From positions 1 through 37,361 of IMG/VR virus record IMGVR_UViG_3300030376_003912: DNA of 37,361 nucleotides; one strand, 5' to 3'. This DNA comes from a virus. Taxonomy: Duplodnaviria > Caudoviricetes. The notes below the pieces were generated by a model, which worked only from the letters and a program-made list of their open reading frames with translations, ran no database searches and was not told the origin of the DNA. Position 1 is the first letter of the stretch. The number at the start of each line of letters is the position of its first letter. A program made the translations under genes and the position numbers. Shown in pieces: positions 2,877 through 37,361 of the stretch.

Positions 2877-3146
2877 ATGAAGCAAACAGAGATTCAAAAG
2901 GAGAATCAAATGAACACAGTAAGATCAGCAGCAGAAAAGTCTGGTAAGACTTTCAGTAAAATGGAAACAGTAAGAGATACAAACAAGCCACAATTCAAAG
3001 TGATAATTGATTTGGACGGAGAAATAACTGAACACATCTTTGATGATAAAAACCCAGCAAAGATGATGGCTCACAACTACAATTATATTCCAAATTGTGT
3101 TGCCAAAGTTATATCACTTGCACGCTATCGCAAAGGCAGCAACTAA
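2877..3146 (+). CDS. Hypothetical protein (second, SD-led in-frame start at 2910)
   Basis: Downstream of promoter; AAAGGAG before ATG 2910; followed by a terminator. Confidence 0.75.
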   Translation: MKQTEIQKENQMNTVRSAAEKSGKTFSKMETVRDTNKPQFKVIIDLDGEITEHIFDDKNPAKMMAHNYNYIPNCVAKVISLARYRKGSN

Positions 3147-3168
3147 TCTTCCCTACGGAGACAGATTG

Positions 3169-3192
3169 GACCGGCCTTCGGGCCGGTCTTTT
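3169..3192 (+). terminator. Intrinsic terminator
   Basis: GACCGGCC-TTCG-GGCCGGTC-TTTT. Confidence 0.85.
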
Positions 3193-9289: not shown

Positions 9290-9633
9290 GCTTCATCAAC
9301 TGCGCCTTCAACTATTCCGGCCACCTGCAGGCAGACGTTTGAAAGGCGATCTAAAACGTTTGAGGATTTCTCATTCAATAACCACTCTGCATCATCTTCT
9401 GCGAATACGGCTTCTCCTGTTTCAGGGTCGTATACGCAAGACACCAACATGCCGCCCCAGAGGGCTTCCATCTTGTTGTCGTCGTCGCTGGTTAAAGCTG
9501 TGACAATTTGCGAGCGTTGAGTTCCGGTCATTGATCGGACTTCAACTGTTACCCCCCATTCAGGTACTTCCACTATTTCAGAAATACGATCTTGAGCTTT
9601 TCTAATTTTATCTCTAATGGACACTGTGGTCAC
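9247..9633 (-). CDS. Tail assembly chaperone
   Basis: VEVPEWGVTVEVRSM motif; between tail tube and tape measure. Confidence 0.85.
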   Translation of the reverse strand: MTTVSIRDKIRKAQDRISEIVEVPEWGVTVEVRSMTGTQRSQIVTALTSDDDNKMEALWGGMLVSCVYDPETGEAVFAEDDAEWLLNEKSSNVLDRLSNVCLQVAGIVEGAVDEAGKDFSDSQTVEDE

Positions 9634-11226: not shown

Positions 11227-11508
11227 ATGAAGCAAACGAACAAAAAAGGAGAAGCTTCCAAAATGATAGAAAAAATAACACATGCAACTCGGATAGACAG
11301 AACAGAAGATGAAGCGATAGCCGAAATACTAGAGGACTATGCAGACTACATCGCAGAAGGCTGGGAATTTGATACCGGCGCTGAACTCATAGAAGAAGAG
11401 ATCGGAAGTTTCGGACAAATAAACGTTTGGGAAATAAGAGTTCAAACCACACCAGCCTTGTACGACGGACTTACCGCAATAGACATGGAACTTCTTGGTT
11501 TAGAATAA
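11227..11508 (+). CDS. Acidic hypothetical protein (second in-frame start at 11263)
   Basis: Promoter, AAAGGAG RBS and downstream terminator. Confidence 0.75.
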   Translation: MKQTNKKGEASKMIEKITHATRIDRTEDEAIAEILEDYADYIAEGWEFDTGAELIEEEIGSFGQINVWEIRVQTTPALYDGLTAIDMELLGLE

Positions 11509-11595
11509 AGATTTCCTGATTTCTTGAACCGCTCCGAAGGCAAACCATAGCAGAACAATCTGTTCCCTGCGAAGCCAAGCGAAGTTCATAGAGTG

Positions 11596-11627
11596 GAACC
11601 CTCGCCCGAAAGGGTGAGGGTTCTTCT
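11596..11627 (+). terminator. Intrinsic terminator-like hairpin
   Basis: GAACCCTCGCCC-GAAA-GGGTGAGGGTTC-TTCT between convergent genes. Confidence 0.75.
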
Positions 11628-11829
11628 ATTGAAGTAAGAAACCAGACGAGGCGTTGATGTGTTTACATCTCCAACATTGAATACGAAACGGAGTTGAAAT
11701 AAGTTCAGCAATTAAAGCTGGTCGCCCTCCACGCTCGGCTGCTGGTCCGGCGCATTCTGGATTGGCACAACGTAACATCTCAAAAGTTCGCCCAACCGGA
11801 ATTGGCATCTCGCCGTAAATGTCATTCAT
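11626..11829 (-). CDS. Zinc-ribbon protein, Mu Com-like
   Basis: RC....C ... IQCWRCKHIN pattern. Confidence 0.55.
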   Translation of the reverse strand: MNDIYGEMPIPVGRTFEMLRCANPECAGPAAERGGRPALIAELISTPFRIQCWRCKHINASSGFLLQ

Positions 11830-12169
11830 CTTCTTCTGTCATGTTCTCCAGTTGAATTTCTACATTCATTAGCCGGTTATGGATATCGTCTACGGTCCAA
11901 CTTTTAACGCTGGTGCTTAGATCAGAAATTCTTAATTGGTTGAGTCCTGAAATGCTTTCTTCTACTTCAATCATGCGTTCCGTTAAACTATCTAGTTCGG
12001 CGGTTGTTCTGGATTCTAATAGTTCTTCCAATGTAGCTATGCGGGAAATCTGTCCTGAACCGTAAACGCCTAGACTGACTCCGGCGCTGATTAGAGAAAT
12101 AACTAAACCGAGTTTGACTTTGCTGACTGAAATTTGTCGCCACGATGTGAGCGCTTCTTCTTCGCTCAT
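11822..12169 (-). CDS. Membrane-anchored coiled-coil protein
   Basis: One TM segment followed by heptad-like sequence. Confidence 0.6.
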   Translation of the reverse strand: MSEEEALTSWRQISVSKVKLGLVISLISAGVSLGVYGSGQISRIATLEELLESRTTAELDSLTERMIEVEESISGLNQLRISDLSTSVKSWTVDDIHNRLMNVEIQLENMTEEDE

Positions 12170-12171
12170 GG

Positions 12172-12576
12172 TTATGTCTCTTTGGTAACGTAATAATTTG
12201 CCACAAAAATTATTCGGTCTTGCGTGTCACGTTCTAATGGGAGTGGCGATTGTTGTGCCTCTATTCTCAAATATCTTGTAGAAGTTAACGTTTCATTTAG
12301 AATTAAAACTAGAACGCCCCAAACATCATTTGCTAATGCTTCTCCGGTTGCGTATGAAGCTGCGCGGCAGCGAACTTGTAATCCTGGCACTTCTAAATTA
12401 GGTGCCGCTGTTCCGAGTTGGTCTATTGGTGCTAGTCCTCCGGTTTGGTAAATAGCTACGCAAGTGTCTGGCGATTCAGGTAGCCGTCCGAGAAAAAGGT
12501 TTGTGCCAAGTGTCAGGTCTTGTGTTGAGATTGAAGCGGCAGCGAGTTTGGTGCCTATGTCGCTTAGCATTGTCAT
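12172..12576 (-). CDS. Tail terminator-like protein
   Basis: LFLGRLPESPD, QVRCRA..Y, D...R..FVAN motifs; position. Confidence 0.7.
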   Translation of the reverse strand: MTMLSDIGTKLAAASISTQDLTLGTNLFLGRLPESPDTCVAIYQTGGLAPIDQLGTAAPNLEVPGLQVRCRAASYATGEALANDVWGVLVLILNETLTSTRYLRIEAQQSPLPLERDTQDRIIFVANYYVTKET

Positions 12577-13004
12577 TTGATTAGTCCTTTAATCATTTTT
12601 ACGATCTTCTTGTCGTAACCTATGAAAGCTTGTGTCGTAGGATATTCAAGATATTTTGATCCTCTGCCGGAACCTTGACCGGCTTCAACTGGTCCGGTTC
12701 CGCCACGATTTTTAGCAGGATGCCAATAATCAGGGTTCTCATGTTGGATCGCGGCGTAAGGAGCGGCGGTTCCTCCGTAACTAACTGTTCCTTCTATTTT
12801 TGCTCCTCCTACCGGAAACGTTACTACTTGAGAATCTGATAATTCGCCTTCCTCATAAGGCACGAGGTCGTTTGCTTTCTGTGCGATATCTGCTGTGACA
12901 TCTTGAACAGCCATTCTTGTCGCCTGGATTACTTGACGGTTTCCTTGTGCGATAAGTCGTTGCACATCTTTTATGCCGGTAATCCTGATTGGTTCTTTAG
13001 CCAT
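12573..13004 (-). CDS. Neck/tail completion protein (HK97 gp10-like)
   Basis: VP...G.L..S, YAAIQHE, KYLE motifs. Confidence 0.7.
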   Translation of the reverse strand: MAKEPIRITGIKDVQRLIAQGNRQVIQATRMAVQDVTADIAQKANDLVPYEEGELSDSQVVTFPVGGAKIEGTVSYGGTAAPYAAIQHENPDYWHPAKNRGGTGPVEAGQGSGRGSKYLEYPTTQAFIGYDKKIVKMIKGLIK

Positions 13005-13366
13005 TATCTTTTCTTTCTACCGACATAAGCTACGACACCGACTTGTCCTTTCGGGTCGCGTCTGGTTTCAACCTGAACTATCGGGCGCGTGGCAGAAATA
13101 GGAGCAGGGAGTGTTATCTGGTCGTCAACATCTAACGTGAGCGAAGTGTCTGGAATATAAACCACCCATTCAACTTCTATTAAATCGTTTATGTCTCCAC
13201 GATCTGATTCTTGGCTTCTGCGAATATATGCGTCGTAAGAGGTTGCGTCACCGGAGAACGATCTTTCTCCGTAATTATTGACAGTTGAAGATGTGCGAAT
13301 GCTCACCGTGTCTGGTGTCATGTTGACTTTCAGGTCGGTTGCGAACTGTGCGGAAACGGCTGTCAT
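13004..13366 (-). CDS. Head closure protein
   Basis: Size and position; NNYGE motif. Confidence 0.6.
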   Translation of the reverse strand: MTAVSAQFATDLKVNMTPDTVSIRTSSTVNNYGERSFSGDATSYDAYIRRSQESDRGDINDLIEVEWVVYIPDTSLTLDVDDQITLPAPISATRPIVQVETRRDPKGQVGVVAYVGRKKR

Positions 13367-13830
13367 TATTCCACGCTACTTTGTGCCTTGATGCCGCCTT
13401 CGTCTTTGTTTGTGAATTGACCACTAGAGAAATAAGGTTGTATGCGATCTGAATTATCTCTGTCTGTTTCTTTATCTGAAATTGTTAAGCCGCCAGCGTA
13501 AGGTGTTGGTACTGAACCTTCACGAGTTGAAAGTGCTTTTAGTTCTTCTGCTTGTATCCGGTAAGCTACTGCTTTCTGCGACATGGAAACCTTCATGTCT
13601 CCAACGGCTTGATCGGCCAGGCGTGAGAACTTAGAAGCGATAGTTGTGCAACAACGAGAAGCTACATCGTAAAGAGAGTCTGTTGATGTCGTGCTTCCTG
13701 TTACTTGTTTATTGACCCACGTGATTTCTTCGTTTGCTAATAATTGATCGTTTGTGTCCGTATCGCCACACAGAAACCTGATTGCATTTAATGCTGATGA
13801 GTCTGGATCACCTGAATAAGTCCATGCCAT
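13366..13830 (-). CDS. Head-tail adaptor
   Basis: WTYSGDP...IRFL.GDTD...LL.NEEI motif; follows the capsid gene. Confidence 0.75.
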   Translation of the reverse strand: MAWTYSGDPDSSALNAIRFLCGDTDTNDQLLANEEITWVNKQVTGSTTSTDSLYDVASRCCTTIASKFSRLADQAVGDMKVSMSQKAVAYRIQAEELKALSTREGSVPTPYAGGLTISDKETDRDNSDRIQPYFSSGQFTNKDEGGIKAQSSVE

Positions 13831-13851
13831 AGTTTGTCCTCGTCTTGAATA

Positions 13852-13904
13852 GGTAAAGCCGGAACGTCCAACCGAAACAAGTCGGTGTCGTTCCGGCTAT
13901 TACC
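13852..13904. other. Long stem-loop downstream of major capsid gene
   Basis: GGTAA-AGCCGGAACG...CGTTCCGGCT-A-TTACC with inner ACCGA/TCGGT. Confidence 0.65.
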
Positions 13905-13924
13905 GTGAGTTATTTAGTTGTAAA

Positions 13925-14884
13925 TTAAGCAGCTACAGGATTGCTAAAGAAGTAACCGAGAGCGCTGGAAACTAATTTGAAGTCCCACGCGCTTTGGATT
14001 TCTATACGATCCGAACGTAAGTGTTCCATACGGAAACGGCTTACGGCTGTGTTGCCACCCATTCCACCTGATTGGTTAAGACCTGACCAGATGAAGTTGT
14101 AACCGCCGGTTGGTGTTAGAAGTGACGGCGTGCTGGCTGAGTGAACCAGTAGTGCGTCACGATCACCAATTTGAGCGTAAGAAGCAGAAGCTCCTTCGTC
14201 GGCGGTGTTCTTAATTCCTGACATGACCAGAACTTCGTCAAGTCCCAAAACACGAGCCATAAGATCAGCGGTAACTGAATCAGAGGTGGTGTATTTGAAA
14301 CGATCAACGAAATCTGCGTGGTTCTTCAAGATTGAAAACACCTTGTACGAAACAACCAATTTGTTCGGCAAGTAGCCGGTGTTGGTTAGGACTGTGTTTA
14401 TTCCTGCTTGAATATCAGCGATTGGTGTTGAACCAGAAGCGGCGCTCCACAGTGTGGAAGGCGTGCTGTCAGTTCCCCAAACGGAAGTCGTGAAATAAGT
14501 TGATGCCCAGTCAATTTCTTGACGGATAAGCATTTGTTGAGTTAGAAACCGAGTCGCATCGGAATCAGGGCTTAGTGGGTCATCAGAATTGGCTCTTACC
14601 TGGTCGCTTATGTCTTTGTGTAGTCCATAGACGGCGCTGCTGTAAGAGTCGGTTGATAAGTTGTAACCGCTTCCGGCTGATTCGGTGCCTGGCGCGCGTA
14701 GTTCGGCCTGGTCACGCATAAAGTCAGCTTGAGTATAGGTAAAAAATTTATCTGATTGTTTCGCAACCGGAACGCTCGGAAAAACTTTTGGTGCCACAAA
14801 GCGATCTAGCTCTTGTTGGTAGGCGACTGAAATGTTGGATAATACTTGATCCACATGTACGTCGGAAATAGTTGGTTGTGCCAT
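13925..14884 (-). CDS. Major capsid protein
   Basis: HVDQVLSNISVAY...FP.VPV.KQSD N-terminus; 319 aa; strong RBS. Confidence 0.88.
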   Translation of the reverse strand: MAQPTISDVHVDQVLSNISVAYQQELDRFVAPKVFPSVPVAKQSDKFFTYTQADFMRDQAELRAPGTESAGSGYNLSTDSYSSAVYGLHKDISDQVRANSDDPLSPDSDATRFLTQQMLIRQEIDWASTYFTTSVWGTDSTPSTLWSAASGSTPIADIQAGINTVLTNTGYLPNKLVVSYKVFSILKNHADFVDRFKYTTSDSVTADLMARVLGLDEVLVMSGIKNTADEGASASYAQIGDRDALLVHSASTPSLLTPTGGYNFIWSGLNQSGGMGGNTAVSRFRMEHLRSDRIEIQSAWDFKLVSSALGYFFSNPVAA

Positions 14885-14898
14885 TTTTTTAGTTCCTC

Positions 14899-15285
14899 CT
14901 ATGCCGCACGACTATTTGAAATAGTTATGAGGGCGGATTGTAAAGTGCCTGCGGCTCCACCTGTGATGACTTGACCGCAGTTGTATACGGTTGTCTCGGT
15001 GCCTGCGACGACTGGTTGCCCTTGACCGTCAGCTGAGCTGCCGAGACAGTCACCGGCGGCGACTGTTGCATCTACGGAGAATTTGGATATTCCAAATACT
15101 CTTACGACTGCTTGTTCGCCGGATTCTGGTGTGTTCTGGAGAACGCCGATTGGTTTGTCGGTTACTGCCGCACAAACTGTCACGGTATTATCACCGGACA
15201 TTTTGACAAAGTAGTATTGTTTTGAGGATAGATCGGCGGAAGCTGTAAAAGTTCCGATGTCCTGTCCTATGGATTCGTATGCCAT
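14899..15285 (-). CDS. Capsid decoration/cement protein (DUF2190-like)
   Basis: ADLS.KQYYFVK...IGVLQN.P..G..A.V...G.SK pattern. Confidence 0.7.
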   Translation of the reverse strand: MAYESIGQDIGTFTASADLSSKQYYFVKMSGDNTVTVCAAVTDKPIGVLQNTPESGEQAVVRVFGISKFSVDATVAAGDCLGSSADGQGQPVVAGTETTVYNCGQVITGGAAGTLQSALITISNSRAA

Positions 15286-15288
15286 TTG

Positions 15289-15996
15289 TTAGGCTCCCAT
15301 CTCTGTTACGTATGCTGCGTACATTTCAGGATTGGCTTTAGCCGCTTTTGAAATGCCGTCTGCAAGGTTGTTAGCTTCGCCACTTTCAACGAGTTGCTTA
15401 GCTAGGGATTCAATACGATCCCATGCGCCTGTTTCAACTTCGTCGCTGGCTTCTGTGCCGAGTTCTTTTAATACGCCCGACTCATTAAGAGCTGTGGCGC
15501 AACCATCAAAAATGTTTTCAATGACTTCTGCGGCTTCTGGTGCTGATTGTTGTAGAGAGCGAAGAACTGGTGCGAACTCACTAGGGACAACACCTGGAAG
15601 GATTGCCCAATCGTTAGCTCGTTCTGTTGCCTTCTCTAAAGCGCGTTCGTTCTTTACTGCATCTGCTTCGGCGCGAGCCTCGTCAAGTGCTTTTCGTAGA
15701 TCAGAAACTTCCTTGCGGAAATCTTCGTCTACGACTGGAACCGTTACGGCTTCTTTCTCTACTTCAGCAGTAGGTTCGTGAGTTAGTTCACTCATTTCTT
15801 CTCCTGTTGTTTCAGTAGTTGTTGCCTCATGTGCGTCGGCTAATGCTTTGTCTAGTGAGTCGTCACTTGACTTCATCACTAGCCAGCCTTCATGAAGATT
15901 CGCAGGGTGATCCACGCCACTGATTTCGTTGAGTTCTAATTCAACAAGTTGTGTCGGTTGTTTCGCCATGCGTCTTTCTTCCGTCATTGAGGACAT
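15289..15996 (-). CDS. Scaffold protein with N-terminal prohead-protease fragment (start may be the downstream MAKQ)
   Basis: LVELELNEISGVDHPAN motif, then acidic coiled coil. Confidence 0.7.
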   Translation of the reverse strand: MSSMTEERRMAKQPTQLVELELNEISGVDHPANLHEGWLVMKSSDDSLDKALADAHEATTTETTGEEMSELTHEPTAEVEKEAVTVPVVDEDFRKEVSDLRKALDEARAEADAVKNERALEKATERANDWAILPGVVPSEFAPVLRSLQQSAPEAAEVIENIFDGCATALNESGVLKELGTEASDEVETGAWDRIESLAKQLVESGEANNLADGISKAAKANPEMYAAYVTEMGA

Positions 15997-16039
15997 TCAT
16001 AATAATAGGCAACGTTTGAAAGGTTGTGGTGACGGTTGC

Positions 16040-16264
16040 TTATATCTCGTCGCCGTGTCCTCTGTGCCATCCTTCGTGAGCGGCCAGGCGTTCAGATGTT
16101 TGGTCCAACTTCCGGTCTATGTTCTCTGTCCGGTGGTCTATGGATTTGAGTAGCGAATAGTTTTCGTTTACTGAATTTCGTACTTTAGCTGTGAAGAAAG
16201 AAAAGATGCCGGTTACGACAGCGATGACGGTTCCACCGACGGCGGCTATTAGTTCGTTTGTCAT
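16040..16264 (-). CDS. Small membrane protein with coiled coil
   Basis: TM helix, then ...ERLAAHEGWH; TACGAT upstream of ATG 16264. Confidence 0.6.
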   Translation of the reverse strand: MTNELIAAVGGTVIAVVTGIFSFFTAKVRNSVNENYSLLKSIDHRTENIDRKLDQTSERLAAHEGWHRGHGDEI

Positions 16265-16335
16265 GTCGGGTATCGTATCGGATTTCCTGGCGATCATTTG
16301 ACCAAAAGAAATCTTGATAAATATGTCGCAAATGT

Positions 16336-16364
16336 TTGAAACCTTGCCCCACCTATGGCATACT
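16336..16364 (+). promoter_or_regulatory. Phage promoter, family copy 3
   Basis: TTGAAA-N17-CATACT; ~60 bp identical to copy 2. Confidence 0.85.
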
Positions 16365-16370
16365 GGTCTA

Positions 16371-16437
16371 TGTAAGAGAAAGCATGCGTAGCTTGGATTA
16401 GGTAAAGACCGACGACGAGGCGCGTGTTTCTCTTACA
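16371..16437 (+). ncRNA. Candidate small hairpin ncRNA
   Basis: Starts at the expected TSS; TGTAAGAGAAA/TTTCTCTTACA stem extended by G-U-containing pairs; no ORF (ATG TAA). Confidence 0.6.
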
Positions 16438-16472
16438 CAAAAAAATAAATCTTCCCTACGGAGAAAAGATTT

Positions 16473-16519
16473 GAGGGTCGCTAGGTTTGGGGAAACAACT
16501 AGCGGCCCTCATTTTTTTT
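16473..16519 (+). terminator. Intrinsic terminator
   Basis: GAGGGTCGCTAG...CTAGCGGCCCTC-A-T8. Confidence 0.8.
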
Positions 16520-22350: not shown

Positions 22351-22379
22351 TTGCATACTAGGTCGGGGTATGCTAAAAT
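22351..22379 (+). promoter_or_regulatory. Phage promoter, divergent family copy 4 (start of early arm)
   Basis: TTGCAT-N17-TAAAAT with extended TG; followed by the ATGAAGCAAAC leader. Confidence 0.75.
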
Positions 22380-22385
22380 GGTTTT

Positions 22386-22844
22386 ATGAAGCAAACGGCA
22401 AAGGAGCCAAATATGGAAACAGATAGGTGCGACATATTTATTTATGGTGGCACAGTTCATTCTAAAAGAGACTTAGAGTTTGAAGCGATAGTTGAAAAGG
22501 AAATGGCTGATTACTACATCTGGCAAGAAGCAACCAAAATGAGAATGACATACAATCAGTACGTCGCTCATCTTGAAGCTAACCCAGAAGAATCATCATC
22601 GGCTGGAACTGTGAAAGAGATTAAGCGAGAAGGGCAACGGACATTGAAGCGAGGAGCGAATGTTCGGGTTCAACTCAAACAAGTTAAAGGCACGAAGAAA
22701 GATGACGGCTATGTTGTTGAGTGTTACGACGACAACACGGTCCGAGTCTATTTGGAAGATTACGGCAACAGCCGAATCGTTACTGTTAATGAGTTCATTA
22801 AAGGAAGAGCCGGAACTACGCCGGTTCGGAAAGAGCAAGCATGA
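22386..22844 (+). CDS. Hypothetical protein (second in-frame start 22413)
   Basis: Promoter and AAAGGAG; ATGA overlap with the next gene. Confidence 0.7.
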   Translation: MKQTAKEPNMETDRCDIFIYGGTVHSKRDLEFEAIVEKEMADYYIWQEATKMRMTYNQYVAHLEANPEESSSAGTVKEIKREGQRTLKRGANVRVQLKQVKGTKKDDGYVVECYDDNTVRVYLEDYGNSRIVTVNEFIKGRAGTTPVRKEQA

Positions 22845-28107: not shown

Positions 28108-28245
28108 ATGAAGCAAACAGAGATTCAAAAGGAGCAAGTAATGGAAGATTCAAATATAGAGTTTGAGTTCAATGAAGAATTAGGGGACTTTCAAGTCTTT
28201 ATAGAAGAGGGAGAACCTAACCCTTTAGAAACAGAAAGAGAGTAA
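28108..28245 (+). CDS. Small acidic protein (second in-frame start 28141; not in ORF track)
   Basis: MKQTEIQKEQVMEDSNIEFEFNEE...; promoter and RBS. Confidence 0.6.
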   Translation: MKQTEIQKEQVMEDSNIEFEFNEELGDFQVFIEEGEPNPLETERE

Positions 28246-28248
28246 GCA

Positions 28249-28410
28249 ATGGGTAATCAAGAAGCAAGAGAAATGAAAGAACTCAAGCAAGAGCTTGAAG
28301 TTCTGAAAATGGAAAACGCAGGTTTGCGTTTATGTTTAACAAAACCATTATATAAATTTACTAGTAAACCAGAAGATGTCACAGTTGATGCTTCTAGGTT
28401 GACTTGGTAA
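28249..28410 (+). CDS. Small hypothetical protein (53 aa; not in ORF track)
   Basis: Open frame filling the gap between neighbours. Confidence 0.5.
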   Translation: MGNQEAREMKELKQELEVLKMENAGLRLCLTKPLYKFTSKPEDVTVDASRLTW

Positions 28411-30569: not shown

Positions 30570-31177
30570 AAATATTAAATCTGTATTCGGGAATTGGTGG
30601 CAACAGAAAGTATTGGAACGATCACGAAGTCACAGCGGTTGAAACAGACGAAAAGATTGCCGCCGTCTATAAATCTTTATATCCAAACGACACAGTTTTA
30701 ATTCAAGACGCACACGAATTTTTATTGCATAACCACAACGATTTTGATTTTATCTGGTCCAGTCCTCCATGCCAAAGTCATTCACGAATGCAGTTAGCGG
30801 GAAGAAATAGAAAACCTAGATATCCGGACATGAGACTTTACGAAGAAATTGTTTATCTTCGGCAATTCTCAAACGCTTACTGGATAGTTGAGAACGTGAA
30901 ACCCTATTACGGCGAACTGATTCCAGCCACTGTTATAGGTCGCCATTATTTCTGGTCCAATTTTTCTTTCACAGCTCAGGACGTTCCACGCCCTAAAGGA
31001 TTTATTAACCCGAAGCGAGTAGGGAAACAAGATTTGATGGATTGGTTAGGAATTTATTATGAAGGGAATGTTTATTACGATGGGAACCATTGCCCTTTTC
31101 AAGTCTTGAGAAATTGTGTGCATCCGGAAATAGGTCGCCAGATTTTAGATTGCCTGGAACCGTTAAAAATGACTTAA
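30566..31177 (+). CDS. Short C5-methyltransferase-like protein
   Basis: LNLYSGIGG, SPPCQSHS, VENV, RNCV. Confidence 0.8.
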   Translation: MKILNLYSGIGGNRKYWNDHEVTAVETDEKIAAVYKSLYPNDTVLIQDAHEFLLHNHNDFDFIWSSPPCQSHSRMQLAGRNRKPRYPDMRLYEEIVYLRQFSNAYWIVENVKPYYGELIPATVIGRHYFWSNFSFTAQDVPRPKGFINPKRVGKQDLMDWLGIYYEGNVYYDGNHCPFQVLRNCVHPEIGRQILDCLEPLKMT

Positions 31178-31207
31178 AAGAAATAGTAAGAAATATGTCG
31201 CAAATGT

Positions 31208-31236
31208 TTGAAACCTTGCCCCACCTATGGCATACT
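31208..31236 (+). promoter_or_regulatory. Phage promoter, family copy 6
   Basis: TTGAAA-N17-CATACT. Confidence 0.85.
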
Positions 31237-31242
31237 AGAAAC

Positions 31243-31566
31243 ATGAAGGAAACAACAACAAAAGGAGAAGCTTTCATGTTAAACAAATCATTAGAAATGG
31301 AAATAGAGTTTCAGGCACACATGTTTATTTCAGCAACAAGCAAAGCTGTTGAAACTATTTACAGTGTAGAAACAGCAGAAGAAGCAGACGAGGCAATCAC
31401 TGAATTGATAGAAGCAATACAAGATCACCGACTAGCATTTCAAAGCTCTTACGGCGAAATTGGCGAACTATATGAAGCAATTCAAGAAGCAAGATGGCAA
31501 CTAGACAGAAGGTTCATTGAAGAAAACGGAGTTCCTCTTAACTGTGGATTTATCCCACAAGTTTAA
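31243..31566 (+). CDS. Acidic hypothetical protein (second in-frame start 31276)
   Basis: Promoter and RBS. Confidence 0.7.
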   Translation: MKETTTKGEAFMLNKSLEMEIEFQAHMFISATSKAVETIYSVETAEEADEAITELIEAIQDHRLAFQSSYGEIGELYEAIQEARWQLDRRFIEENGVPLNCGFIPQV

Positions 31567-31598
31567 CAAACTCAACAACAACAGAAAGAGCAAGCAAA

Positions 31599-31934
31599 TT
31601 GAAAACATTTACTCAAAAACAAGAGCAGCAGTTAATTAAAAACCATCAGGCAAACTTTGGTAAAGAAGAAACCACAGATTTCAAACCTGTCGTAAAACTT
31701 ATGGTCCGTGTCGGCGGTAATGCGACCTGGTTATTGTCTGAACTAGAACCAGAATCACGCATCGCTTTCGGCCTCTGTGATCTCGGAATGGGATCACCTG
31801 AATTGGGATATGTAAGCATTGACGATCTTGAAAAATTAGGTTGGCAATTAGAACGCGACATGTATTTTGAAGCTAAGAAAACTTTGAAAGAATACACCGT
31901 TTCTTCACGGAACATGGGAAGCATTGTCGCATGA
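31599..31934 (+). CDS. DUF2958-family protein
   Basis: PVVKL...ATWLLSE, FGLCDLGMG.PELGYVS, ERD.YF. Confidence 0.8.
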   Translation: MKTFTQKQEQQLIKNHQANFGKEETTDFKPVVKLMVRVGGNATWLLSELEPESRIAFGLCDLGMGSPELGYVSIDDLEKLGWQLERDMYFEAKKTLKEYTVSSRNMGSIVA

Positions 31935-32479
31935 GAATTCCTGATCGTGTCCGAATCATTTTCGCTCTTGCTGTGACTGTCAGTTGTGGCGCTCATCAAG
32001 TTGCTGTCGGGTTATCCGGCGAGCCGGTTGAGAGCTGGACCTATTCTGATTCAGTGCAGCAACGAACAACGATTTTGCCGGAACCAAAGCCAACTGTAGA
32101 GACCGACCCCTTTCTGGTTTCTACGACTACATATATTGAAGCTGATACGACTTCAACTTTGGTTCCGGCAGTTACGCTTCTTGACTTGATTCAAGAATAC
32201 TTTCAACCGGAAGATTGGGACTGGGCATTGCGAGTGGCTTTCTGCGAGTCGTCTGCTCAATCCTACGATACGACTAGCGACGCTCGTCATCCGAGTTCGG
32301 GTGCTTCTGGCTGGTTCCAGCATCTTCCAAAATTTTGGGAGGAACGATCACGGAAAGCTGGAATACCTGGCGGAGACATTATGGACCCAAGAAACAATGT
32401 TCTTGTTGCTGCATGGCTTCTGTATGAAACTTCGCAGGGTACTTCTCACTGGTATCCGTCAGAGCATTGTTGGGAATAA
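31931..32479 (+). CDS. Exported lytic transglycosylase (SLT-like)
   Basis: N-terminal hydrophobic segment, Thr-rich linker, CESS...ASGWFQ...DP..N. Confidence 0.75.
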   Translation: MRIPDRVRIIFALAVTVSCGAHQVAVGLSGEPVESWTYSDSVQQRTTILPEPKPTVETDPFLVSTTTYIEADTTSTLVPAVTLLDLIQEYFQPEDWDWALRVAFCESSAQSYDTTSDARHPSSGASGWFQHLPKFWEERSRKAGIPGGDIMDPRNNVLVAAWLLYETSQGTSHWYPSEHCWE

Positions 32480-32505
32480 AGATGTCAAATAATAAGGAGA
32501 AAGAA

Positions 32506-32844
32506 ATGCAAAATTATGCTAGTTTCGCTGTCGCTAGAAATAGTGATCCTGACACAAGTTGGGAGGCGGCTGAATCGTTAGGCGATTTAGGCAAACTACA
32601 ACAGAAGGTTCTTGAAGTGTTGAAGCAAATAGGACCGGCTACAGATGAAGCTATTCACGAATTTTATGAGTGGATGTACGATACAAGAGTTTCACCATCA
32701 ACAACACGGACACGGCGCAAAGAATTGCAAGACATGAACCTGGTAGTTCTGGTAGATAGGAACGGAACGACTAAAGGTGGCAGGCGCTGTCAAAGATTTG
32801 CAATTAACCATGTCGCTAATCATTTACAGTTGGAGTTGATCTGA
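32506..32844 (+). CDS. Winged-helix-like phage protein
   Basis: AR.SDP.TS..AA, TDE, RTRR.EL motifs; AAGGAG RBS. Confidence 0.6.
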   Translation: MQNYASFAVARNSDPDTSWEAAESLGDLGKLQQKVLEVLKQIGPATDEAIHEFYEWMYDTRVSPSTTRTRRKELQDMNLVVLVDRNGTTKGGRRCQRFAINHVANHLQLELI

Positions 32845-32846
32845 AT

Positions 32847-33092
32847 ATGTCGGAACCGGAAGAAGAAACCCACCCGACCCTATGTTGGGAAATTAACGAA
32901 ACAGAATACGAGCTTGCATTTGGTTATGTAGATAATGAACCTACTGCCGCTTTATTTATTAAAGACCGGCCAGAAGTTCAGGCGTTAATTCCACAGGAAG
33001 TTCTCGGCATAGCTGCTGAGCAGGGTTGGCTTACGCAGGAATTGTTGTGGGAAGAAAACGATAAGCGATTATTGGATAAGCGTTCCGAATAG
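32847..33092 (+). CDS. Acidic hypothetical protein
   Basis: ORF in the operon. Confidence 0.55.
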   Translation: MSEPEEETHPTLCWEINETEYELAFGYVDNEPTAALFIKDRPEVQALIPQEVLGIAAEQGWLTQELLWEENDKRLLDKRSE

Positions 33093-33109
33093 AGGCTATC
33101 CTTTATTTC

Positions 33110-33337
33110 ATGACGAAATTATTAGAAGAAACTGACGACTGGTTTTTGTTCCAAATTGGGAACGAGGGTTATGTTCCGTTTGGGGAAAAGTATGTTTTTA
33201 AGCGTGATGTGAATAAGGGCGACATAAGAGGGAAAGCTGGTACCACGAAAATGTTTTACACTGAAACTCTTGGCGATGGTTCTCCTTGCCTGGAACCACG
33301 CAAAATAGGACTTAGAAAGAAATATAAGAAATCTTGA
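33110..33337 (+). CDS. Hypothetical protein
   Basis: ORF; TATCCT 7 nt upstream suggests a leaderless start. Confidence 0.5.
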   Translation: MTKLLEETDDWFLFQIGNEGYVPFGEKYVFKRDVNKGDIRGKAGTTKMFYTETLGDGSPCLEPRKIGLRKKYKKS

Positions 33338-33355
33338 TAAATATGCCGCAAAATG

Positions 33356-33384
33356 TTGAAACCTTCCCCCACCTATGGTAAAGT
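33356..33384 (+). promoter_or_regulatory. Phage promoter, family copy 7
   Basis: TTGAAA-N17-TAAAGT. Confidence 0.85.
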
Positions 33385-33390
33385 ACTTAT

Positions 33391-33636
33391 ATGAAGCAAA
33401 CAAACAAAAAAGGAGAAGCTTCCAAAATGAAATCACAAATTGTTTCTTACAAAGGTCACCAGATACAAGTAGAGGAAGATGGCGACATCACAGTATGGGA
33501 ACTAAACACTGACGGTAATGCGCTTGGTCACTTCTTGGTTAGTTCTTTTAAAGAAGCCAAAGAAGAAATTACTAGGATCGTTAATGAACAACGCGAATAC
33601 GAAAAAACTGTGAAGATATTCGGACTGAATGGTTAA
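33391..33636 (+). CDS. Hypothetical protein (second in-frame start 33427)
   Basis: Promoter and RBS. Confidence 0.7.
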   Translation: MKQTNKKGEASKMKSQIVSYKGHQIQVEEDGDITVWELNTDGNALGHFLVSSFKEAKEEITRIVNEQREYEKTVKIFGLNG

Positions 33637-33661
33637 GTCGGGTTCAATTCCCGACAGTCCA
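33622..33661 (+). other. tRNA-like minihelix (acceptor stem + T arm)
   Basis: GGACTG-N10-TCGGG-TTCAATT-CCCGA-CAGTCC-A. Confidence 0.6.
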
Positions 33662-33697
33662 CGATAAGATAAAAAAGTACTTGAAAACTAAATAACT

Positions 33698-33788
33698 AAC
33701 GGCAGGTAAGCGGTGTCTGTTTTTCTGTATTCCAGACATCATCACTCCTTTTGTGGTTTGCTTCATATCTAGCTTGCCTGCCGTTTTT
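33698..33788 (+). ncRNA. Candidate trans-acting antisense sRNA
   Basis: 14-bp closing stem, inner hairpin, exposed CTCCTTTTGTGGTTTGCTTCATAT complementary to the leaders of six phage transcripts. Confidence 0.65.
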
Positions 33789-33846
33789 CTTCTGCTAGTG
33801 CTAACTGAACAGAAAGCACCTTCTTAGGAAGTCCGATAGCAGAACC

Positions 33847-33893
33847 GAAATGGCCCACTGTGCTTGCTTGCTCCGGTGGGTCATTTCTTTTTT
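33847..33893 (+). terminator. Intrinsic terminator ending the early arm
   Basis: GAAATGGCCCACTG/CGGTGGGTCATTTC 14-bp stem (2 G-U) + T6. Confidence 0.8.
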
Positions 33894-34120
33894 CTATGTA
33901 GCTTTTCCCGATGTCGTCTGCGTTGCCGTTCTCCTTTACCACCCCAGATGCCATGCTCAAGTGGCCAGAGTGAAGAATTGAGGCATTGCTGTTGGACTTT
34001 GCAACTGCCACAGATTTCGGCGGCTTGCGGACTTATGCGTTCTCCTACTTCGGGAAACCACCATTCGGTTGGTTGGCCTAAACAGTTGGCTTTCTTTCTC
34101 CAGTTGTCATCTTTTGACAT
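33881..34120 (-). CDS. whiB: WhiB-family transcription factor
   Basis: Four conserved Cys (C...CxxC.....C), GIWGG turn, basic C-terminus. Confidence 0.9.
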   Translation of the reverse strand: MSKDDNWRKKANCLGQPTEWWFPEVGERISPQAAEICGSCKVQQQCLNSSLWPLEHGIWGGKGERQRRRHREKLHRKKK

Positions 34121-34144
34121 TCCTTAATGATACCGGAACGTTAT

Positions 34145-34924
34145 TTAGTTGATGAGTTCCTGCCAGGTAGCCGGACCCACTACGCCATCAACAGTTAGCG
34201 ATTCTTGCCTTTGGAAAAGCCGGACTGCTCTGTCTGTGCCAGAACCAAAAATTCCATCTATGCCGATTCCTTGACGAGTTCGTTTCTTAGATTTAGCTGT
34301 CGGAATGTTCTGGTTCTCTAAAAGCATTTGCAAAAACTTGACTGCTTCTCCTCTGGAACCTCTACGGAGAACATGTTTTCTGGCTCGTTCAACACCTTCA
34401 GCGATTATTTGCAGTGGGTGTTTCTCTGGTGCCGGAGGCGTGTAAGTTGTTCCGTCAAGTGCTGGCGCTGGAAACCAACCCCATTGTCCGTTTGCTTGTT
34501 TGCCGTATGGCTGGTGATGCCACCATTCAGATTTTACGGTTGGGTAAAGTCCAAATGTCTTTGCAATATTATTTGTCTCCCACGTTGAGATGGCGCTTTT
34601 TTTAATGATGCGAAAATCAACTGCATACCCTAGCGCGACACCTGTCGCAGTAGGATTGTCTGGATCAAAAGATTGGCACATATGGAAGCTTCCGCGCCAT
34701 ACGGTTCCTGGCCGAACATAATTTGGATTCGCTGCGAGGTTGCCTTTCCCTGCTAAAAATTTTTCATATAAGGCTGATTGCTGGGCCACCGTCCTAACTG
34801 CCGAGCAGACACTTACGTTTCCACGAATTTGTGGGTGGTCAAAAAATGCTGTCAGTCTTGTTTTGAAACGAGGGTGCAACTCATCAAGACGGACCCATTG
34901 AGAAGTTGTTGGTATGTCTGTCAT
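34145..34924 (-). CDS. Peptidase M15-like cell-wall hydrolase with C-terminal PG-binding domain
   Basis: S..RT..QQ, SFH, AVD, EWWH; GSRGEAVK.LQ...DGIFG..T...V..FQ...DGVVGPATW. Confidence 0.85.
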   Translation of the reverse strand: MTDIPTTSQWVRLDELHPRFKTRLTAFFDHPQIRGNVSVCSAVRTVAQQSALYEKFLAGKGNLAANPNYVRPGTVWRGSFHMCQSFDPDNPTATGVALGYAVDFRIIKKSAISTWETNNIAKTFGLYPTVKSEWWHHQPYGKQANGQWGWFPAPALDGTTYTPPAPEKHPLQIIAEGVERARKHVLRRGSRGEAVKFLQMLLENQNIPTAKSKKRTRQGIGIDGIFGSGTDRAVRLFQRQESLTVDGVVGPATWQELIN

Positions 34925-35091
34925 ATTTTTACTGCATCTCCTGAAGCTACAACCGTTTTTACTTGTGCGGCGGTGGCTTCAAACTGGTCGCCGTATTGAA
35001 ACTGTGAAGCGCCAAGAATTAGTCCCTTCTCAAATGTTCCGGTTACTTGATTGAAATACATTTGGTTACATTCCACGCGATATCTGCTCAT
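34921..35091 (-). CDS. Small protein (56 aa; not in ORF track)
   Basis: ATGA overlaps at both ends; MSRYRV...GDQFEA resembles 10824-11027. Confidence 0.6.
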   Translation of the reverse strand: MSRYRVECNQMYFNQVTGTFEKGLILGASQFQYGDQFEATAAQVKTVVASGDAVKI

Positions 35092-35869: not shown

Positions 35870-37361
35870 CACGCAACTGGTGGTAATTTTTTACTGAATA
35901 AAAACGACGCAACTGGGTTTCTCAACTGGCTTACTGAATAAAAACCACGCAACCACGTAAAAGCCGTATTCAATAAAAACCACGTAAAAGCCGTATTCAA
36001 TAAAAACCGCCACGCTGGATATCCTGCAACGCGCCACGCTGGTGATCTTGCGACGCAAAAGCGCCTATATTTACTGAACCAAAAGAGACAACTTTGCATA
36101 ATTAAACTACTTTTTCAGAGCTAAACCGGATTTAAGCCTGATTTTCCGGTGATGCAACTGGGTTACTGAATAAAAACGCCGCAAAAACACGGTCACAACT
36201 GGTCATAATTACACTACTTTTTCAAAATCGCCACGCTGGATATCTTGCGACGCAACTGGCTTACTGAATAAAAACGCCGCAACTCGGTTTCTCAACTCGT
36301 TTACTGAATAAAAACGCCGCAACTAGCTTTTGCACCTGGAAACCGCCACGCTGGATATCCTGCAACGCGCCTTGCTGGTGATGTCTTGCACGCAAAAGCG
36401 CCTATATTTACTGAACCAAAAGAGACAACTGGTCATAATTACACTACTTTTTCAGAGCTAAACCGGATTTAAGCCTGATTTTCCGGCGATGCAACTCGTT
36501 TACTGAATAAAAACCACACAAAAACACGGTGACAACTTTGCATAATTAAACTACGTTTTTAGAGCCGCCACGCTGGATATCCTGCGACGCAACTGGCTTT
36601 CTGAATAAAAACGCCGCAACTCGGTTTCTCAACTGGCTTTCTGAATAAAACCACGCAACCAGATATTCAGAAACAAAAGCCGTTACTTTTTTACTGAATA
36701 AAAAAACCAACTAGGTTTTGCACCCTAGAAATCAGCTTCTCAACTGGCTTTCTGAATAAAAACCACGCAAAAGCCGTATTCAGCTATAAAACCGCCACGC
36801 TGGTGATCTTGCGACGCAACTCGGTTACTGAATAAAACCACGCAACCAGATATTCAGAAACAAAAGCCGTTACTTTTTTACTGAATAAAAACCACGCAAA
36901 AGCCGTATTGAATAAAAACCACGCAAAAGCCGTTACTTTTTTACTGAATAAAAACCACGCAACCACGATTTCAGCTATAAAACCGCCACGCTGGTGATGT
37001 CTCACACTCAAAAGCCGTTAGTTTTTACTGAATAAAAACCACGCAACCAGATATTCAGAAACAAAAGCCGTTAGTTTTTACTGAATAAAAACCACGCAAC
37101 CAGATATTCAGACATAAAAGCCGTACTGAATAAAAACGACGCAAAAGCGTTTCGCAACTCGGTTTCTGAATAAAAACGACGCAAAAGCGTTTCGCAACTG
37201 GCTTACTGAATAAAAACGACGCAAAAGCGTTTCGCAACTGGCTTACTGAATAAAAACCACGCAAAAGCGTTTCGCAACTCGCTTACTGAATAAAAACCAC
37301 GCAAAAGCGTTTCGCAACTCGCTTACTGAATAAAAACCACGCAACCACGATTTCAGAATCG
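35870..37361. repeat. Modular repeat array, right part
   Basis: Many CTGAATAAAAAC cores; 40-bp tandem units at ~37140-37345; higher-order duplication ~36005-36300 vs ~36343-36640. Confidence 0.95.

Follow-up and report, generated by a model that had tools for sequence, protein, structure and literature searches.

Can a single small RNA of a phage address the 5′ leaders of a whole set of that phage's own transcripts? The question is raised by positions 33698-33788 of the window (the whole stretch of DNA analysed, an entire virus record, 37,361 bases long, with an estimated completeness of 74%), which the original prediction had taken for a phage-encoded RNA complementary to a leader shared by six transcripts. 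The minus strand of the window carries structural and lysis genes and the plus strand, between 22386 and 33636, recombination, replication and methylase genes; the RNA element lies at the junction of this plus-strand region and a convergent whiB gene.

The leaders combine two conserved blocks, the +1 AUG block and the Shine-Dalgarno (SD) block. As claimed, the pattern ATGAAGCAAAC-N-AAAGGAG occurs five times on the plus strand (at 2877, 11227, 22386, 28108 and 33391) and once on the minus strand, inside the element (33745-33766), and the leader at 31243 matches with one mismatch; the pattern is absent from 100 shuffled sequences. The six leaders, with their rank in the genome-wide pairing scan described below, are:

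2877..2912, plus strand: class I leader, +1 AUG in frame with an SD-led AUG; pairing rank 2
11227..11265, plus strand: class I leader; pairing rank 6
22386..22415, plus strand: class I leader at the head of the plus-strand early region; pairing rank 1
28108..28143, plus strand: leader with class I and class II tags; pairing rank 3
31243..31278, plus strand: class I leader with one mismatch; pairing rank 10
33391..33429, plus strand: class I leader after the promoter-like site 33356-33384; pairing rank 4

Each of them begins 6-7 nt past a -10-like hexamer, which probably puts the leader ATG at +1, as the first codon. The two translation starts per leader of the original prediction are present in 6/6 window leaders, where the +1 ATG is in frame with the SD-led start; among 12 records, such in-frame double starts occur in 47 of 51 leaders, and seven further leaders have no SD-led start by the pattern. 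The six leader-led proteins of the window have no Pfam match above the cut-off.

Other features accompany the early transcription units. The spacer of the early promoters contains an asymmetric, operator-like motif, TAGGT(C/G)GG, in either orientation (minus strand at 2861, 11211, 16355, 28092, 31227 and 33375; plus strand at 22359 and 24484), while two relatives, L169 and L335, have another spacer motif in their early promoters. At 16306-16515 (plus strand), a seventh early-type promoter, without leader tag, lies ahead of two hairpins, one long and one small, and a terminator; this is a candidate second non-coding RNA of ~150 nt (z -6.6, similar on both strands; no Rfam family). A structured 3′ region (11510-11630, plus strand; z -4.1; no Rfam family) lies between the gene led by the 11227 leader and a terminator, and a short repeated element, AATCTTCCCTACGGAGA..AGATT, stands just before two terminators, at 3147-3170 and 16447-16470.

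The element itself is probably a plus-strand RNA of ~217 nt (33677-33893), with the following predicted parts:

33665..33670, plus strand: predicted -10 box TAAGAT of the RNA's own promoter, with a predicted start near 33677
33678..33692, plus strand: boxA-like single-stranded 5′ segment CTTGAAAACTAAA
33698..33785, plus strand: domain 1, consisting of the outer stem P1, the variable hairpin P2 (33712-33740) and the small hairpin P3 (33741-33757)
33745..33751, plus strand: anti-Shine-Dalgarno seed CTCCTTT in the P3 loop, complementary to AAAGGAG of the leaders
33756..33766, plus strand: anti-leader seed GTTTGCTTCAT, complementary to the +1 AUG block of the leaders
33790..33844, plus strand: domain 2, optional, a three-way junction with the closing stem TTCTGCTA/TAGCAGAA
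33847..33893, plus strand: terminator-like hairpin of the intrinsic type and U tract; loop 33861-33874 complementary to GGAGCAAGCAA
33881..34120, minus strand: whiB gene (Pfam Whib, E 1.5e-13), convergent with the RNA element

Comparison with relatives gives a conserved unit from ~33665 to 33893, so the extent first proposed, 33698-33788, covers only the region of the first domain. Within that region, P1 (33698-33711/33772-33785; 14 bp, one G-U), the inner hairpin (33712-33719/33733-33740) and the T tract are where they had been placed. The view that 33745-33768 is unpaired needs amending, as ATCAC (33741-45) pairs with GTGGT (33753-57), but the seeds themselves are predicted to be open: the anti-SD seed occupies the 7-nt P3 hairpin loop (predicted probability of being unpaired 0.97) and the anti-AUG segment is part of the multiloop (0.93 for 33758-33768). 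Domain 2 is missing in the homologues L335 and L338, and the 3′ arm of the terminator overlaps the stop codon of whiB. No Rfam family reached its gathering score in the window or in eight loci of relatives.

Folding gives -36.9 kcal/mol for the plus strand (z -7.5) and -27.7 kcal/mol for the minus strand (z -4.9), and the z-score is better on the proposed strand in 13 of 15 elements, and also in G040; the exceptions are the first hairpin of G009 and the fold of L335, slightly better on the other strand. G-U pairs outnumber A-C mismatches 60 to 1, but since this count is biased toward the folded strand, we relied on the z-scores instead. By these and with support from the relatives, the plus-strand RNA of the original prediction remains the favoured one.

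In all, eight distinct versions of the element were compared (window, L334, G001, L169, L335, L336, L339 and L338), found by the leader pattern, by a whiB search of viral contigs and by a whiB search of metagenomes; five metagenome loci were used as partial loci, not as whole records. In these, 96% of 106 P1 cells are paired, with changes on both sides at 9 of the 14 pairs; none of 500 shuffles paired as highly, although the relatedness of the homologues can inflate this test, and slid controls were 27-51% paired. RNAalifold recovers 13 of the P1 pairs unaided. The terminator stem is 98.6% paired (4/10 pairs with both-side changes) and the closing stem of domain 2 is 96% paired in seven rows (one pair changed on both sides), which makes 5/18 such pairs for these two stems together. 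The terminator loop TGCTTGCTTGCTCC is invariant in 7/7 aligned rows; the loop of L338 differs. Conservation in relatives, on which the prediction depended, is thus seen in eight distinct homologues, with compensatory changes in P1 and in the terminator.

Wider searches added little to this set. A search of IMG/VR with the leader pattern yielded 68 single-match loci, three of them from relatives; a terminator-loop pattern gave 15 loci with no homologue beyond the three already known, and a box-plus-seed pattern at least 119 loci, again with none beyond those three among the matches listed. Of 50 records, model R1 matched two, both of them training sequences; it leaves the distant RNAs described below undetected and so gives no evidence of their homology with the RNA of the window.

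The original prediction had the RNA made at the end of the transcript from the promoter at 33356. This need not be so: the RNA element probably has a promoter of its own, because a TAnnnT box is kept in 8/8 homologues whatever gene lies upstream. The box precedes TTGAWAAYT by 10 nt in seven of the eight and by 11 nt in one, and contigs of two runs join the RNA module, at 33660, to a different upstream stretch. The -35 element is poor in the window; TTGAAA/TTGTCA is found in L169, L336 and L339. The eight TAGGTNGG motifs of the window are all at plus-strand promoter-like sites and none is at the promoter of the RNA, which may therefore escape whatever controls the early promoters.

At the 5′ end of the predicted RNA, TTGAWAAYT is conserved in 8/8 homologues. 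Upstream of 16S, two MAGs have a motif that the TTGAAAAC segment matches: CCTTGAAAAC stands there in both leaders that were readable, and CTTGAAAAC is shared by the element with both, though these MAGs, which hold capsid relatives, may not be the host. The TTGAAAAC segment also resembles the boxA consensus given for B. subtilis, AUGAUCUUUGAAA (PMC13753749).

Directly upstream, at 33622-33665 (plus strand), we noticed a tRNA/tmRNA-like mini-helix with a short acceptor-like stem, a 10-nt linker and a T-arm, ending in ACGA. Its fold z is only -2.2 and it is absent from the other seven RNA homologues; copies occur on the minus strand at L081:13641, L116:10637, L135:5642 and, in G038, near 940, 2685 and 50971, and in distant relatives they show compensatory changes and immediately precede leader-like gene starts. 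The mini-helix may serve as a signal for processing. A role of this tRNA-like hairpin as attP was considered and rejected, as no integrase was found and ARAGORN finds no gene there.

Does the RNA single out the leaders? In a genome scan with loop 1, the six leaders rank 1, 2, 3, 4, 6 and 10 among non-overlapping sites drawn from 24,884 windows, close to the top places that had been foreseen for them, and they are six of the top seven among 63 gene starts, the seventh being 26208. The window seed forms 11/11 pairs with five leaders and 10/11 with the one at 31243. When each leader was folded with the full RNA by RNAcofold, the seeds were not where the leaders bound, and the gain of -1.0 to -6.6 did not exceed that for 50 other gene starts (0 to -10.5). 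Since binding within a closed multiloop is beyond a nested two-strand model, we take this result as uninformative, and it lends no support either.

Seeds and leaders also vary together. L169, which was found via whiB and independently of the seed, has the seed GTTTTGTTCAT, two bases different from that of the window. Its two promoter-linked leaders form 11/11 pairs with their own seed and 9/11 with the window seed, while the L169 seed forms 9/11 pairs with five of the six window leaders. This is the covariation between RNA and leader that the prediction implied for relatives; it is independent of the search route for L169 only.

We placed 15 capsid relatives on a tree and examined them for leaders and an antisense copy. 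A leader family together with a stem-enclosed antisense copy is present in eight of the 15 (G001, G006, G037, G023, G008, G009, G038 and G040). All but G001 are distant records (MCP 64-76%) with other tags, and each has a stem-enclosed antisense copy that matches its own tag, a match that is partly built in because it was the leader tag that led to these RNAs. Terminator-like or further hairpins lie downstream in all these elements but one, G023a, which was folded only to the end of the stem. The element of G040 was predicted from its leaders and then found (z -6.5). When 13 seeds were paired with 12 leader sets, the best-pairing set always had the tag of the seed, partly by construction for the distant records; an automated test recovered the element in 4/9 records (in two more, the match lay elsewhere) versus 24/225 control 9-mers. 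The two seeds stand in swapped order in G008 and its sister phage G009, as would be expected of independent RNA modules more than of a copied leader.

Leaders for which no antisense copy was found occur in G007 (25% complete), G022 (one leader; 69%), G015 and G010; the latter two are both estimated to be 100% complete, so the tag can exist without the RNA. No leader family was found in G021, G033 and G013 (the search of G013 did not include the tag of G015), nor, in an ATG-only search, in nine short records. Two variations on the theme were noticed. G023 has two separate antisense elements, at 9441 and 21640, against one leader tag, and most G040 leaders (e.g., 9948, 20116 and 39544) begin with AACAGCAAC, without a +1 AUG, where those of its sister phage G038 read ATG(G/A)CAGCAA, so that a tag can persist without a leaderless start.

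A second tag, GGAGCAAGCAA, is complementary to the loop of the terminator (loop 2). The GAGCAAGCAA tag stands before other, internal early genes, at these sites:

22833..22843, plus strand: class II tag GAGCAAGC, preceding an internal early gene; best gene start for loop 2
28240..28251, plus strand: class II tag, preceding an internal early gene
31588..31601, plus strand: class II tag, preceding a DUF2958 gene

In eight records, 20/20 hits of a class II tag with a start codon have the strand of the RNA, and the six gene starts that loop 2 pairs with best all belong to plus-strand genes. Loop 2 is not selective on the scale of the genome, where only one of the 15 sites that pair best with it is a gene start, and its match is weaker than that of loop 1.

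As for the setting, capsid relatives occur in five genome contigs, among them one of an Acidimicrobiales MAG (76%) and those of two Chloroflexota MAGs, by which a marine actinobacterium is the likely host. The whiB gene is directly convergent with the RNA element in 6/8 homologues and ~1 kb off in L336 and L339, and it also adjoins the antisense RNA elements of the distant relatives G006 and G037; that the neighbouring WhiB has a role is speculation. The capsid/connector gene block (11675-16266 in the window) sits elsewhere in G001, G002 and G004, the RNA-whiB module has also been relocated between these and the window, and several of the block edges are near repeated promoter cassettes. From 35900 to 37361 and on from 1 to 260, ~1.7 kb of degenerate repeats built on CTGAATAAAAAC, with periods of 24, 27, 40, 53 and 337, span the ends of the record, possibly an origin or packaging region.

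From these comparisons, we consider it probable that a conserved plus-strand RNA with its own promoter pairs in trans with the six tagged leaders and jointly represses their translation. Transcription would start at ~33677 and a stable RNA would accumulate, the P3 loop of which would pair with the SD and the multiloop strand of which would bind the +1 AUG block. With the seeds separate, a spacer of variable length between the leader blocks would be tolerated, so that leaderless and SD-led starts would both be covered. Translation of the tagged mRNAs would be lowered, a sign that we assume from the position of the seeds, and the terminator loop would add the internal early genes tagged GAGCAAGCAA. 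More speculatively, the boxA-like segment would help transcription to pass the U tract behind P1, so that a short form would have one seed set and a long form both. As these phages look lytic, the RNA likely serves to shut off early protein synthesis with a delay, as an RNA counterpart of T4 RegB. A more far-reaching version, in which a lytic marine phage lineage places a phage-specific tag over a leaderless AUG at every early promoter and silences all the tagged mRNAs with one structured RNA of modular, reorderable seeds, with Nus-dependent read-through adding the second gene class to make a two-step RNA timer without protein repressor, is possible, and we put it forward tentatively.

The leader-pairing RNA might instead be a factor for immunity or superinfection exclusion in a lysogenic or carrier state, its seed setting immunity groups as c4 does in P1/P7. 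A two-seed design with a specificity switch of a few bases, as described for C4 (PMC5320573), would suit such a function, and so would a promoter devoid of the early-promoter motif TAGGTNGG. However, no tyrosine integrase or resolvase was found in 9/9 records searched, five of which are at least 90% complete, no HTH_3 repressor matched above the cut-off in these nine records (one weak HTH_3 match fell below it), and antirepressor, repressor and integrase families are absent among the 66 ORFs of the window. The phages of the RNA-bearing lineage look lytic, which favours early shut-off over immunity, and we regard the latter as unlikely.

We hold it to be quite unlikely that the RNA, once paired with the leaders, moves initiation from one AUG, leaderless or SD-led, to the other, or that it activates the mRNAs or makes them more stable, instead of simply repressing. 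Two in-frame starts are kept in nearly all leaders (47/51), the two seeds are separable modules and there is a precedent in the sas RNA of P22, described as switching between two sieB peptides (PMC12197685), but both seeds directly cover initiation signals and the leaders, short and A-rich, would have little structure for an activator to open. It is very improbable that host mRNAs are the main targets through the anti-SD loop, with the match to phage leaders secondary: CACTCCTTT does resemble the 16S 3′ end, GATCACCTCCTTT, read in the MAGs, yet the second seed tracks each phage's own leader tag, and an RNA for host shut-off would be expected to spare phage genes rather than match them. Equally improbable is a function of the element as minus strand or DNA, whether as a seventh leader or as a decoy protein site beside a bidirectional terminator: although a perfect leader on the minus strand opens a 40-aa frame and convergent genes need terminators anyway, that frame, named at the outset as the rival reading, is not conserved (40, 25, 11, 58, 5, 5 and 10 aa in seven homologues, none of which has a -10 box for it), the stems are compensatory and the natural variant CT>TC at 33858-59 shifts a G-U pair that is still G-U on the plus strand.

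We return to joint repression by an RNA that pairs with tagged leaders. Of the marks of a trans-acting small RNA, the element has a conserved structure with predicted promoter and terminator signals as well as covariation of seed and target. No RNA run was listed as containing positions 31000-35000 of the window, and one RNA run that was examined yielded no contig, which speaks neither for nor against transcription. A literature search, in which few subscription papers were covered, found no published description of a tagged-leader RNA system. If the proposal is true, one small RNA addressing a whole early regulon by a shared 5′ tag would be a distinct solution to early shut-off, which in lytic phages is known mainly via proteins such as RegB of T4, and the RNA would change in step with the tag over at least seven tag types. 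The window and L169, two seed bases apart, form a natural pair suited to a compensatory experiment, and the set of elements would supply mutually orthogonal RNA-leader pairs for leaderless starts.

T4 RegB is similar in acting as one factor on many early mRNAs, which it inactivates at a GGAG-containing translation-initiation motif common to them, and this is described as easing the early-to-late transition (PMC3014915). It differs in being a protein nuclease that needs S1, whereas here RNA would pair with a tag that varies by phage. The sar RNA of P22 and the OOP RNA of lambda are of cis origin. Together with aQ, they are described as phage antisense RNAs that lower the expression of phage regulatory genes, but with one target each, and aQ is cis-acting (PMC12197685). 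PreS of lambda and VpdS of VP882 are, like the RNA proposed here, phage-encoded and seed-based with many targets, but they depend on Hfq and act mainly on host mRNAs (PreS) or on host and phage mRNAs (VpdS), and the portions of these reports that deal with them describe no shared tag on the phages' own early leaders (bioRxiv 10.1101/2024.10.31.621285; PMC12197685).

The closest likeness is to c4 of P1/P7 (Rfam C4, RF01695), described as phage-encoded and trans-acting, with two looped seeds in a multi-stem fold, one on the ribosome-binding site and the other for specificity, where few bases separate the phages (PMC5320573; PMC12197685). By prediction, the window RNA has the same two open seeds, the anti-SD loop (0.97 unpaired) and the anti-AUG strand (0.93). 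Membership of the C4 family was rejected: the model RF01695 has no match in the record at E up to 10, and there is no antirepressor or lysogeny target (66 ORFs; nine records without integrase). Moreover, c4 has one target, the ant mRNA, and serves the upkeep of lysogeny, in contrast to six or more leaders in phages without integrase, and it is an RNase P product of ~77 nt, whereas promoter and terminator are predicted for the window unit itself. At its 5′ base, P1 reads AAC, GAC or ACA in 7/8 homologues, not the GGW of the C4 RNase P cut, a difference that concerns the motif and not processing itself. As modelled here, the window RNA is one that would act like c4 of P1/P7 but stands outside the C4 family.
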